Counted from the stretch's first letter, positions 2,433 to 19,238 are shown. The stretch is DNA of 58,521 bases from a virus (IMGVR_UViG_3300046167_000389:1-58521); one strand, 5' to 3'. Numbers and translations: made by a program. Notes: a model not told the origin generated them from the letters alone.

Positions 2433-2491
2433 TAGGCTGTCTCATCAGTGACCGTTGCCTAAGCGATCAGACGGGCTGATGCCCGTTTCGA
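2433..2491 (-). ncRNA. Type II hammerhead ribozyme with pseudoknot (HH1)
   Basis: UC-GAAA-CGGGC(AUCA)GCCCG-UC^-UGAUCG(CUUAGGCAA)CGGUCA-CUGAUGA-GA; loop I UAGGC pairs with the 3' GCCUA; complete catalytic core. Confidence 0.88.
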
Positions 2492-2493
2492 TT

Positions 2494-2647
2494 TAGTCGT
2501 TTTCTTCGTTTTCTTTTTCGGTTGCTTTCCAATCTTCAAAGCAGTCAGCGCAAAGCAACTCGTTTGGGGCAGGGTGATAAAATCCCTGCACCCCATGACC
2601 GCACCCAGCGCAATAAGTTGTTCCATCTGTTCTCTTGTCCATTTCAC
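2494..2647 (-). CDS. Small hypothetical protein, probably frameshifted
   Basis: An alternative frame ends DCFEDWKATEKENEEND-stop just before HH1. Confidence 0.45.
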
Positions 2648-2654
2648 CTACCCC

Positions 2655-2897
2655 TTAAAATGGAATTTCATTGCGGTTCATGTCACGCTCACAAAAGCTG
2701 AAACAAACTGTGACGGGCTGCTTTAAACTTGAAATCAAAGCTTGCATTGCAACCGCATCGAAATATGCATCTTCAAGGTTGGCTGGATATTCACCGGCAT
2801 ATTCGCCGTGGTTGTATTCGTCTGCCTCATAATAGTGGGCCTGACTGGTGCTATCTTGAAATCTTAAAGAATTGATTTGGTTTGGTTCATTGGTCAT
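2655..2897 (-). CDS. Acidic hypothetical early protein
   Basis: ORF with leader motif; shares its MTNEPN start with the 2408 ORF. Confidence 0.7.
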   Translation of the reverse strand: MTNEPNQINSLRFQDSTSQAHYYEADEYNHGEYAGEYPANLEDAYFDAVAMQALISSLKQPVTVCFSFCERDMNRNEIPF

Positions 2898-3131
2898 TGG
2901 TCTCTCCAGTTCGTTGGTTGGTGTTCAGGCACAGATGCCCGTCACCCCTGTTAACATGTCTGAATTAATTATGTCCACAATAAACTGCCAATATACCGCG
3001 ATAAGTTAACAGGCCTGTAGAGCGCATATAAGCGCCACTGAGTGCGTTAACAGTTTCTGCCACTTAGAGTTCATGAAATCTGCTAGACCCCACTCAGCGG
3101 CGATTTTCGCTTTTTTCGGGGTAATTTTGCC

Positions 3132-3358: not shown

Positions 3359-4259
3359 CACGCTGCCTCCAGAAAACGGTTGTCCGAAATCCATTTATTA
3401 ACTTCTAATTCACGCTGCATCATATTAGCTGCGCGGTTTTGATTGCGGCATCAGTCTGACGCAGAGCGAAGCCGTTTCGATCATCGGCATAGGTGGCATA
3501 ATTGGTCCAAGCAGATACCAGAGCGAATTTGTTTTTACCTCTGACTGAGGCCTCTGACTGATACAGCGAGAACATTTTGTCTGCTTTGTTTTCTACCTGC
3601 CGCTTGCTGTCGGGGTTGGGCTTTGGAGCCATCATAGAGTTGAGCAGCGCCTTTACTGTGTCATCGGTCAGGCTGGTTTGGGCAAATACTTTCAGCCGTG
3701 CGCTGTCAGCGTAAAAATCGTTCTTCGCTGTCCGAAGCTGTTTGATAAAACCTTCCATAGAAAACTGGCTGCTATTCCTACGGCGCACCTTCGAGTGTTC
3801 TCCCGATACCATCCCATTGAGGCAAAACGCATCTATCGCGCCGAATAGCGTTGTGTTCGAGCCAGAGCCACCATCGATCGAGTGCAAGGCAATGATGCGC
3901 TGCTTGATGGTTGTTTGGTGTTCGTCGGTTTCAATCTGTGTTGCGATAGATGGGAATTGAACATCCATCATTCCAAAAGCACCATTTCTGCCAGACTGAA
4001 ATCTAAGCTGCGCGCCTTCAGTATCGGCTGGGTCCATGTTCTCGGTCACCTGTTGCCAGACGCCCTCAAAAAATGATCGGTGGCTGGCGCATGAAAACGT
4101 GTCTCCCACATGCCCCAGTACTTTTCCGGTGTTACCGTCGATCACAAATTTGTGCCGGTCCTGTCGGCTGGCCTCAAACACCGGATCGAAGTCTAAAGTG
4201 GTTGGCAGTTCGAGGTCTTGGCTGAAGTTTTGAAAATCTAACATATTTCTCTCTTTCAT
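3358..4259 (-). CDS. DUF932-like phage protein (3' frameshift)
   Basis: Motifs IIALHSIDGGS and AIDAFCLNGM; true C-terminus probably NRAANMMQRE...LEAA in the shifted frame. Confidence 0.75.
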
Positions 4260-4284
4260 TGATTGGTTGGTCTGTTCGTTGGTT

Positions 4285-4343
4285 GCTGACTGATCGTCAG
4301 ACCGAAGGCATCACCCTCCGATAACGGCCCAAAGGCCGTTTCA
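4285..4343 (-). ncRNA. Second type II hammerhead-like ribozyme (HH2, variant stem II)
   Basis: GAAA-CGGCC(UUUG)GGCCG-UU^-AUCGGAGG(GUGAUG)CCUUCGGU-CUGACGA; begins right after the upstream stop codon; the 10.1/11.1 positions are U/U. Confidence 0.7.
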
Positions 4344-4559
4344 CTATGCAACCATAAACAGGCGCTCTTGCGCCTCTGCAATTTGCCACTGCTTCATAGA
4401 CCGGCCCTCGAAAATCGGCACGATGCGGTCATTACGCTCGACAACGATATAATTGCATTGATCCAGCCGATAGCCGCGCAGCGCGTGGTCAAGGCGCTTT
4501 TCGTTTGAGTAGGATTTGGCTGATTTCAATTTGATGGCGCTGCGATTACGTTTCTGCAT
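4344..4559 (-). CDS. Hypothetical early protein
   Basis: Start moved to the ATG after AAGGACCAATCAA. Confidence 0.7.
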   Translation of the reverse strand: MQKRNRSAIKLKSAKSYSNEKRLDHALRGYRLDQCNYIVVERNDRIVPIFEGRSMKQWQIAEAQERLFMVA

Positions 4560-4671: not shown

Positions 4672-4762
4672 TCTTGAACCTTTTTTGCTGTCAGTTAAAA
4701 ATGATGCTCAAAACATCGAGCCAGCACGATAAAAACCCGTACAAGGGCGAAGAAATATCTGA

Positions 4763-5057: not shown

Positions 5058-5255
5058 CAGTTAAATTGCGAACTAATAACCTGACTAATTGGTCAACTAA
5101 CGATTTTAAAAAATCATTTTTTATTTTCTCACCTACCTTCACCTACGTCAGGTGACTACATGTAGTTGCAATATGGTCCATATATACTCAGTGAAGGTAT
5201 GATTTGTTCGCGCAGGGAAATTTTTTGATTTTAGTCTGACTGTTAACTTATTTGA

Positions 5256-5285
5256 TTGACAACCTGTTAACTGCTGTAGTAGACT
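5256..5285 (+). promoter_or_regulatory. Rightward early sigma70-type promoter
   Basis: TTGACA-N18-TAGACT; predicted start site falls at the leader motif. Confidence 0.65.
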
Positions 5286-5317
5286 ACTTACTCAACCAAC
5301 TAACAAGGACCAATCAA

Positions 5318-6223: not shown

Positions 6224-6534
6224 AACTCTATACCAACAACCAAGGACAGTGGTCAGGCACTCAGGCTGATGCTCGCAAGCGTTTTAAGAATGACATGCGC
6301 CTAGTCGAGGTTCCGGTAGACAAGCCCAATCTGCTTGCCTTCCTGAATGATAACGCAGTGGGTTCTTTCGAGGCTCTTGGTCACAAGCCAGAGCCAAACC
6401 CTGATCAACTATCCCCAATCGCAACAAGCTGGGTTTCTTGGGCCTTAGAGCGCCTACAGCACGGCCAGAAGAAGGACGCAGAAGAGATGCTTATCAAAGG
6501 TCTCAAGCTACAGAAGGAGATGGCTAATGGTTAA
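6220..6534 (+). CDS. Hypothetical protein
   Basis: Coupled ORF upstream of the integrase. Confidence 0.65.
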   Translation: MKLYTNNQGQWSGTQADARKRFKNDMRLVEVPVDKPNLLAFLNDNAVGSFEALGHKPEPNPDQLSPIATSWVSWALERLQHGQKKDAEEMLIKGLKLQKEMANG

Positions 6535-7663
6535 AGCTCCCTACGTCAGGCCGCGCAGGTTAAGTAATGGGTGGGTCTACGACATCAGGCCTACTGATGA
6601 AGTGCTAGAGACTTTCCCGCATCTGAATGTTAAGCCACGGGAAAACTATACCTGTATTAGAGATGCCAATGCCCGTGGCTTTGAGATTAAGCGTCTGTTC
6701 GAGGCTCACAAAGCCGGTGAAGAAGTAGAGGTACGAGCAGACAGCCGCTCTGTCGCTGCGCTGGTGGACTACTACAAGGACAGCATGGCTTATACAAACA
6801 TCAAGGCCGCTTCTACCAAGCGGTCCTACGATGGTCATCTCAGTCATGTCCAACGTGTACACATAGGCAGTAAACCGTTCAGTAAGATGTTTGTGTCACA
6901 GGTGGATTACGAATACGCACAAAGATTGTGGTTACACATACAAGATGACGTAAGTACACACAAAGCCAACCACACATTCAAGGTGCTGAAGCTAGTATGG
7001 AACGAAGGTTTACGCGCAGGGAAAGTTAAATCTAACCCGTTCTCCTTAGTCAGGATACCCAAGCTACCGGACAGGCAGGTTATGTGGACCGTCGATCAGA
7101 TCAAGGGCATGGTGAAGTACTGTGATGAGCAGGGCTATCCAAGCATGGGTACTATGATCGTCATGTGTTATGAGTTCTGCCAGCGTCCGGTGGATGTACG
7201 CACTATGAAGTGGTCTAACATCGATGGGCGTACTGGTGTTAGTAACTTCATTCAGCAAAAGACCGGCAAGCAGATGTCTATCAAGGTAACCAACGCCGTT
7301 CAGGACAGGTTACATCTACATCAGCACCGTAACTCAGACGATTACATCTTCGCCTACGAGAATACTGGGCGTCCATATTCTGACGATAGATGTAATAAGT
7401 TCTTTCGTAAGCTGGCTGATGGTTATGGGCTACCTGAAGTGCCTCTACAAGGCAGGTTTAATAAAGATGGCAGTCAGATGTACTCTACGATCTGGTTAGC
7501 TGACTTACGACGAACTGGTATAACCCATGCCAGTCAGTCTGGCTGCTCTGACAGAGAGTTGATGGCTCTCTCAGGCCACAAGAACCCTCAGATGCTGGTT
7601 GTATACGCAGTAGAGGGCGAGATTGAATCTACCAATGCAAATATTAAACGAGGACTATTATAA
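6527..7663 (+). CDS. int: Tyrosine integrase
   Basis: Catalytic motifs QRPVDV, QQKT, ADLRRTG, LSGHKNPQMLVVY. Confidence 0.92.
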   Translation: MVKAPYVRPRRLSNGWVYDIRPTDEVLETFPHLNVKPRENYTCIRDANARGFEIKRLFEAHKAGEEVEVRADSRSVAALVDYYKDSMAYTNIKAASTKRSYDGHLSHVQRVHIGSKPFSKMFVSQVDYEYAQRLWLHIQDDVSTHKANHTFKVLKLVWNEGLRAGKVKSNPFSLVRIPKLPDRQVMWTVDQIKGMVKYCDEQGYPSMGTMIVMCYEFCQRPVDVRTMKWSNIDGRTGVSNFIQQKTGKQMSIKVTNAVQDRLHLHQHRNSDDYIFAYENTGRPYSDDRCNKFFRKLADGYGLPEVPLQGRFNKDGSQMYSTIWLADLRRTGITHASQSGCSDRELMALSGHKNPQMLVVYAVEGEIESTNANIKRGLL

Positions 7664-9021: not shown

Positions 9022-9107
9022 CGGACCCATTGATTTCATTGGATAATTCGGGATATCTGCAAAATGCCTGTTAACACTAATTGTTTTTATATGCACCTAA
9101 TTAAGTG

Positions 9108-19166: not shown

Positions 19167-19238
19167 TGAATGGGGTTGAGATTGGTCCATCCTGTTCGTT
19201 GGTTGAGACCCCTGCTTTGGTTGGCGGGGGTCTCTTTT
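19167..19238 (+). ncRNA. Candidate ~70-nt trans-acting antisense sRNA
   Basis: Lies between the promoter and the terminator GAGACCCCTGC-TTTGGTTG-GCGGGGGTCTC-TTTT; contains ATTGGTCC and GTTCGTTGGTTG, complementary to early-gene leaders. Confidence 0.72.

Follow-up and report, generated by a model that had tools for sequence, protein, structure and literature searches.

A type II hammerhead ribozyme motif at a gene boundary in a temperate phage genome: a likely site of mRNA processing

On its minus strand, at 2433-2491, the viral record IMGVR_UViG_3300046167_000389 carries a compact RNA motif lying between the stop codon of one small gene and the Shine-Dalgarno (SD) sequence of the next. This placement raises the question of whether the motif, here called HH1, is a genuine self-cleaving hammerhead ribozyme and what its cleavage would do to the transcript that contains it. 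The window analysed was the whole of this complete IMG/VR virus record, 58,521 bp in length. Its gene content includes an integrase, a DnaB-like helicase, a DNA polymerase, a ribonucleotide reductase, a major head protein, a portal/adaptor protein and a tail fibre, and this combination of integrase, replication and head/tail genes identifies a temperate tailed dsDNA phage. A temperate lifestyle is indicated by the tyrosine-integrase-like gene at 6527-7663 (plus strand), which matches phrog_1 (E 2.8e-39); a search for tRNA genes in the window found none. The only relative with a name in the phage collection was Roseobacter phage CRP-738, which matched 25% of a 1.6-kb query at 70% identity. The phage distantly resembles CRP-738 and is marine and roseophage-like.

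HH1 lies in a leftward transcript with the order 80-aa ORF (2655-2897), 49-aa ORF (2493-2642), HH1, 91-aa ORF (2133-2408) and onward, all on the minus strand. No protein family was found for the 80-aa ORF. The 49-aa ORF encodes a zinc-ribbon-like protein (CxxC...CxxC) with weak, sub-threshold Pfam matches to DUF7573 and zf-dskA_traR, and its TAA stop codon (2495-2493) ends 2 nt before C11.1 of HH1. The 91-aa ORF has homologues in 6 viral contigs (51-98% identity); it matched no Pfam or PHROG family, and an Atlas search with it returned viral hypothetical proteins only.

The structure of HH1 was read from U2491, which begins the 5' strand of stem II, to A2433, which ends the pseudoknot tail, and was aligned to the Rfam model RF02276 over 2431-2493. 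Stem II consists of 2 bp, U2491-C2490 with G2441-A2440, and includes the C11.1-G10.1 pair. The conserved core, made up of G12-A13-A14 (2489-2487) and CUGAUGA (2448-2442), is complete and aligns to the RF02276 core. Stem III (2471-2486) is formed by ACGGGC and GCCCGU around the loop AUCA, with A2486-C2481 pairing with G2476-U2471; the 5 bp given for it in a preliminary description are the inner pairs, and 6 bp result when A15.1-U16.1 (A2486-U2471) is counted. Stem I (2449-2469) joins UGAUCG (2469-2464) to CGGUCA (2454-2449) through 6 bp, one of them G-U, and closes the loop CUUAGGCAA. A 2-nt CA spacer separates stem II from the tail GCCUA (2433-2437), which pairs with UAGGC of loop I (2461-2457). 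The resulting 5 bp compare with the at least 4 bp of loop I/3'-tail tertiary contact expected of type II. HH1 thus displays the type II permutation with three helices, in which U1.1-A2.1, G10.1-C11.1 and A15.1-U16.1 are all paired and no mispair lies beside the core. Position 17 is C (2470), a non-G nucleotide that closes the GUC triplet at 2472-2470 and is followed by stem I. The hammerhead cut falls 3' of position 17, placing the predicted scissile bond between C2470 and U1.1 (2469). Directly after the tail, positions 2432-2406 contain the C/A-rich leader CCAACCAACGAA (2432-2421), the SD-like sequence AGUGAGAG and the ATG (2408-2406) of the 91-aa ORF. The preliminary description had listed a full core, GUC, stems I, II and III and a UAGGC-GCCUA pseudoknot, cleavage between 2470 and 2469, and a run into CCAACCAACGAA-SD-ATG; each of these was present on the minus strand at the positions given here. 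Its assignment of the motif to a known pseudoknotted architecture likewise agrees with the RF02276 class (Perreault et al. 2011, PMC3088659). As the section on this class describes them, type II hammerheads resemble HH1 in having a short stem II and a loop I-3' pseudoknot of at least 4 bp, which is present in the majority of members, and in being found in phage or prophage DNA between genes.

HH1 aligned to RF02276 along the entire model (positions 1-66) and scored 36.3 bits; the E value was 2.7e-6 for a search of 161 nt and 2.3e-7 per genome. The Infernal search proposed for the motif therefore returned the whole structure at a score that fell 0.7 bits short of the gathering score of 37, a curation cut-off rather than a structural feature, set for a covariance model that does not score the pseudoknot. 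A whole-window Rfam scan at the gathering threshold produced no matches, and at E<=1 it listed a second hammerhead (HH2, described below) but not HH1, which was lost to filters at that search size. Standard Rfam annotation would therefore miss HH1. More broadly, genuine type II hammerheads in the genomes of marine phages are missed at the gathering threshold, as illustrated by the two here at 35-36 bits. We also used a strict type II descriptor. Besides the core, it demanded U16.1, H17, the C11.1-G10.1 pair together with one more pair in stem II, and minimum lengths of 4 bp for stem I and 3 inner bp for stem III. HH1 was its single match in the window, and none of 200 dinucleotide-preserving shuffles matched; a looser descriptor that also picked up HH2 matched 5/200 shuffles.

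HH1 was then compared with other viral hammerheads. A scan of viral_contigs with a pattern that specified the core and the three proximal stem I pairs, leaving all else free, returned 28 matches in 27 loci, representing 19 distinct sequences (20 with HH1). Since these 19 were chosen by a pattern derived from HH1, the core and the three stem I pairs nearest to it were fixed by this choice, and the evidence that they provide is limited to the unselected parts, namely stem III, distal stem I, the pseudoknot and the context. In 20/20 class members, a stem III of 6-8 bp and a stem I of 4-10 bp form with differing sequences. The 5-nt tail, taken at a fixed offset of +4 to +8 after G10.1, was fully complementary to its own stem I/loop region in 11/20 members, compared with 58/352 mismatched sequence pairs, and failed this test in the other 9 members. 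HH1 shares its tail offset with 10 other members, and five covarying pseudoknot sequences were identified in the class (GCCUA, GCUCA, AGCCA, GACUA and GGCCA). A 'longest run' version of the loop/tail test separated own from foreign tails weakly (4.7 vs 3.8). The genomic context was also shared: a reading frame open for 40 codons or more stops 1-12 nt before C11.1 in 19/20 members (within 5 nt in 18/20), and a downstream ORF begins 8-43 nt after G10.1 in 18/20. The closest look-alikes of HH1, found in L020/L038 and L030, have a 6-bp stem I, a 9-10-nt loop, a 2-bp stem II and a GCCUA tail. In one unrelated viral contig (L029), near-identical type II hammerheads at 3995-4046 and 4694-4745 (plus strand), 700 nt apart, bracket a single small gene.

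These results bear on whether HH1 merely resembles a hammerhead by chance. Its score below the gathering cut-off would allow this, as would the RF02276 matches seen at E<=1 in 6/14 control genomes. However, the per-genome E value is very small, the strict descriptor found nothing in shuffled sequence, HH1 has a pseudoknot to which the covariance model is blind, and its position precisely between a stop codon and SD-ATG is shared by 18-19 of the 20 class members. The E value, the gene-boundary position and the shuffle control effectively refute a chance origin, to which we assign a vanishingly small probability. HH1 is a genuine element.

We conclude that HH1 is very likely a true type II self-cleaving hammerhead within a polycistronic mRNA, transcribed leftward, that carries small accessory genes, and a likely insulator or mRNA-processing site. 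During transcription, stems I and III would close and UAGGC of loop I would pair with the GCCUA tail, holding stem I beside the 2-bp stem II, and the core would cut co-transcriptionally after C2470. Of the two products, the upstream mRNA would carry the stem III hairpin and a 2',3'-cyclic phosphate at its 3' end. The downstream one would start at U2469, with its 5'-OH buried in the stem I/pseudoknot fold, and would continue through the unstructured C/A-rich leader and the SD to the ATG of the 91-aa ORF. If this cleavage occurs in vivo, it would probably make the stability and translation of the 91-aa ORF independent of the upstream context. In a nearest-neighbour model, the hammerhead fold reached -12.7 kcal/mol, to which the pseudoknot would add about -5.5, compared with -19.0 for a competing fold; stem I as an isolated hairpin had -4.5 kcal/mol. 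When the 3' product was modelled free of pseudoknots, the stem I hairpin was less favoured than base pairing between UCGCU and AGUGA of the SD region (P ~0.65), and the leader had a mean unpaired probability of 0.93. The earlier proposal that the released mRNA begins with a hairpin thus holds for the stem I pairs, which are present in the sequence, but the pseudoknot-free model does not favour their formation.

Published work on the class is consistent with such activity. Pseudoknotted type II hammerheads with a stem II of 1-2 bp cleave fast in vitro, as reported in the section of PMC3088659 on these members, and cleavage in vivo was detected for three type II hammerheads of Desulfovibrio vulgaris in the results on that organism in PMC8782182. 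Hammerheads that flank prophage genes were proposed in the same 2011 article (PMC3088659) to process long phage transcripts, a role also covered in the corresponding part of the review PMC6765202; processing by HH1 is therefore not a new idea. The overview of genomic hammerheads in that review describes most of them as lacking an established biological role. HH1 is otherwise an ordinary example of the class described in 2011, and similar marine or metagenomic sequences may stand in the Dataset S1 alignments of PMC3088659. Its differences from the RF02276 class are minor: a score 0.7 bits under the cut-off, a marine roseophage-like temperate host phage and a lineage-specific C/A-rich leader that it abuts. 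The HHphage variant of haloviruses HF1/HF2, in its description in PMC3088659, lies in an early polycistronic region, 13 nt ahead of a start codon (32 nt for HH1), and a 5' end has been mapped within 3 nt of its cleavage site. That ribozyme, from an archaeal virus, has a variant core and precedes the first ORF of its transcript, whereas HH1 has a canonical core and lies mid-operon.

The second hammerhead, HH2, was located at 4284-4346 on the minus strand (RF02276 35.3 bits), with predicted cleavage between 4323 and 4322. Its core, CUGACGA, differs at variable position 7. HH2 overlaps the TAG stop codon (4346-4344) of a 79-aa ORF and continues into GCAACCAACGAA ahead of a DUF932 gene. Syntenic copies were present in the related contigs L003, L004 and L005, of which the L004 copy scored 38.5 bits, above the gathering score. 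In place of the canonical 10.1-11.1 pair, HH2 has U/U followed by C-G in the window, L003 and L005; in the L004 copy, a bulged U is followed by a stem II of 3 bp, made possible by compensating insertions. The four copies carry U, A, C and A at position 17, where G does not occur. An alignment of the four had 96.6% of cells paired and 6/15 pairs changed on both sides, and its covariation score was reached by 0/500 shuffles, which with four sequences amounts to modest evidence. Because stems I and III covary, HH2 is probably a functional variant, with an activity less certain than that of HH1 owing to its weak stem II. When the whole records of the relatives were searched with RF02276, the L004 contig alone matched; the same search returned no candidate in the CRP-738 record, at a sensitivity that missed the aligned HH2 copies in L003 and L005. 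Sub-threshold matches to the Rfam family STnc50 (35 vs 55 bits, E ~0.02) at L003 4371-4450 and L004 4537-4606 (both minus strand) arise from a terminator-like hairpin and are probably meaningless.

The presence of two ribozymes in the same orientation allows a different function to be considered, in which cuts at 2470/2469 and 4323/4322 would excise an RNA of ~1.85 kb, and ligation would then turn it into a circle or a spliced molecule. The predicted end chemistry would be compatible with this, as 5'-OH and 2',3'-cyclic phosphate ends suit RtcB-type ligation. However, a terminator-like hairpin followed by T8 (3157-3142, minus strand) and then ~220 nt of intergenic DNA free of ORFs intervene between HH2 and HH1, so the two are probably on different transcripts. 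The possibility of excision was raised in PMC3088659, where the passage concerned reports that no such products were found. We regard excision as highly improbable. The hairpin with T8 lies after the DUF932 operon and separates the transcription units of HH2 and HH1. We infer a promoter in the ORF-free region that follows it; a promoter consensus scan flagged no sigma-70-like site upstream of 2922.

The surroundings of HH1 differ between the window and its relatives. Two 44-nt direct repeats, 93% identical and spaced 489 nt apart, were identified on the minus strand. Copy 1 (2390-2433) contains the leader, SD, ATG and first codons of the 91-aa ORF immediately 3' of HH1, and copy 2 (2879-2922) contains those of the 80-aa ORF after an intergenic region and hairpin; consequently, the two ORFs share their first ~19 nt (MTNEPN...). 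HH1 lies wholly inside the 445-nt indel flanked by these repeats, a block whose first gene is the 80-aa ORF. L004 has a single repeat copy (2976-3019) and no counterpart of window 2434-2878, which holds the body of the 80-aa ORF, the 49-aa ORF and HH1. Its intergenic module and hairpin, identical to window ~2990-2923, stand directly before the leader of the 91-aa ORF homologue, and L003 carries a different 271-nt filler at the place of HH1. As these alignments read, HH1 takes the position that is held in L004 by the hairpin downstream of the intergenic region. The preliminary description had suggested that cleavage recreates a leader architecture made elsewhere by promoters; the same 44 nt do follow a hairpin in one place and HH1 in the other, and the L004 layout fits, while the promoters themselves are putative. 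The same gene with its 44-nt leader thus follows a hammerhead here and a promoter-like module plus hairpin in L004, which provides a natural test case for the processing or insulator idea.

A syntenic homologue of HH1 was absent at the 91-aa ORF homologues in 6 loci, including those of the close relatives L003, L004 and L005, and therefore purifying selection on the HH1 copy cannot be shown. Hammerheads were also absent at 3 loci with relatives of the 80-aa ORF and at 2 loci with relatives of the 49-aa ORF; in L013, an 89% identical homologue of the 49-aa ORF is followed directly by the next gene. HH1 might accordingly be an inactive or neutral passenger that arrived with the 445-nt block through recombination and for which this phage has no, or no further, use. 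Its location entirely within an indel absent from L004, the lack of syntenic conservation, the 2-bp stem II and the score just under the Rfam cut-off are compatible with such a history. Yet no core nucleotide is altered, the 5-bp pseudoknot is complete, and the overall architecture (6-bp stem I, 9-nt loop, 2-bp stem II, 2-nt spacer and GCCUA) closely matches that of L020/L038 and L030. Furthermore, a stem II of 1-2 bp is normal among the active pseudoknotted members described in PMC3088659. We consider the passenger status of HH1 unlikely, and favour a ribozyme that still cleaves.

The situation at HH2 is reversed, in that L003 and L004 carry ~245 extra nt between the HH2 leader and the DUF932 leader. 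This ~245-nt cassette (L003 1106-1351, L004 1372-1616) consists of a 71-aa ORF and a hairpin flanked by leader copies, and is the mirror of the HH1 indel. The repeat and indel pattern at the two sites indicates that leader copies mark recombination joints. A broader reading, which we put forward tentatively and rate as possible rather than probable, is that accessory-gene operons of this phage lineage are built from exchangeable cassettes with interchangeable 5' boundaries, joined at the ~44-nt CCAACCAACGAA-SD-ATG leader/start sequence. Each cassette would need a structured 5' boundary ahead of this leader, a role open to any of three devices: a promoter-proximal hairpin, an intergenic hairpin or a hammerhead. 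Where insertion of a cassette separates a gene from its promoter, the ribozyme would restore the native 5' end of the displaced gene, and the shared leader would offer a common handle for a putative translational regulator. HH1 would then act as a natural, portable 5'-UTR insulator comparable to RiboJ. RiboJ, reportedly introduced by Lou and colleagues in 2012, is said to be an engineered insulator in which a hammerhead between variable upstream RNA and the ribosome-binding site (RBS) removes the upstream context. After the cut, the 5' end is reportedly structured and the RBS that follows accessible, and the part is said to be synthetic, combining a satellite-RNA hammerhead with an added hairpin. 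The HH1 arrangement, by contrast, is natural, type II and pseudoknotted, and we infer an equivalent function. Clustered prophage hammerheads (Figure 3 of PMC3088659) are comparable in that several occur per phage (two here), at gene boundaries, with flanked genes that vary among relatives. Unlike those clusters as presented in that figure, HH1 is placed in a defined indel with 44-nt repeats, and a hairpin module occupies the equivalent spot in a relative.

The leader that follows both hammerheads was examined across the phage. With up to 2 mismatches, CCAACCAACGAA had 17 matches compared with 3.27 expected, a number reached by 0/100 shuffles. Good copies in sense orientation, shortly upstream of SD-ATG, were located at 1951, 2421, 2910, 4275, 4986 and 19195 on the minus strand and at 5292 and 9176 on the plus strand, so that the leader is found before at least 8 start codons. 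The leader is a fixed 12-mer of period-4 CCAA/CGAA units, its copies often run on into a conserved (A)AGGACCAAT...ATG, and HH1 and HH2 both abut members of this CCAACCAACGAA-SD-ATG family. The 10-mer AACCAACGAA was also present in L003-L005, CRP-738 (L009) and L010/L011, and was absent from all 27 unrelated hammerhead loci (L015-L041), indicating that the leader is a trait of the lineage and not of hammerheads. The exact pattern of hammerhead tail plus leader had no matches in viral_contigs. In metagenome_contigs it was found at 29 loci, 10 of which passed the strict descriptor; among those that failed, L061 is a probable hammerhead by eye and L067 is doubtful. A hammerhead tail followed by AACCAAC recurs in these metagenome contigs, and in L044 continues with AACCAACGAACAAGGA...ATG. 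The same pattern in genome_contigs (one genome per prokaryote species) gave 18 loci, with 0/18 hammerheads.

The preliminary description had labelled the leader an sRNA target. A duplex scan of both phage strands showed that only the antisense strands of the leaders themselves (-15.4 to -18.9 kcal/mol) exceeded the shuffled background (best values of -12.5 to -15.0 in 5 shuffles), and no phage-encoded anti-leader sRNA or trans-acting seed RNA was found within the phage sequence; the label is thus unsupported. A literature search for the literal 12-mer returned two matches, both unrelated. The leader could be a translation enhancer, a standby or regulator site, or homology for cassette exchange. 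C/A-rich elements are known to act both as translation enhancers and as sRNA targets, with the enterobacterial GcvB targets treated in PMC3879156 as precedent: as here, many of the target genes described there have a C/A-rich stretch immediately upstream of the SD. The phage leader differs in being a fixed 12-mer that marks recombination joints, with no sRNA partner found within the phage sequence. It might nevertheless form one regulated unit with the ribozyme, whose cleavage would lay it open to a common regulator, either a G/U-rich sRNA or a protein that binds RNA, so that each cleaved unit could be controlled on its own. The strong over-representation of the leader, its use at eight or more genes, its sharing with relatives including CRP-738, its position next to both hammerheads and the GcvB precedent (PMC3879156) point in this direction. 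Against it, the complements in the phage are antisense leaders alone, the absence of AACCAACGAA from the unrelated hammerhead loci makes the link lineage-specific, and the behaviour of the repeats as recombination joints explains their identity by itself. We judge a regulated unit of this kind to be doubtful, and favour HH1 as a processing or insulator site.

Two further features were observed near leader copies. Palindromes of TGTTAAC/GTTAACA cluster at 2950-3052, 5241-5271 and 9069-9076, three intergenic regions that precede leaders, and may represent an operator or promoter element; over the whole window, TGTTAAC was not enriched (11 matches vs 8.5 expected). An intergenic hairpin at 19207-19236 (minus strand), formed by GAGACCCC...GGGGUCUC with CCAACCAAAG in its loop, lies directly after the stop codon of an 1184-aa ORF and before a leader copy.
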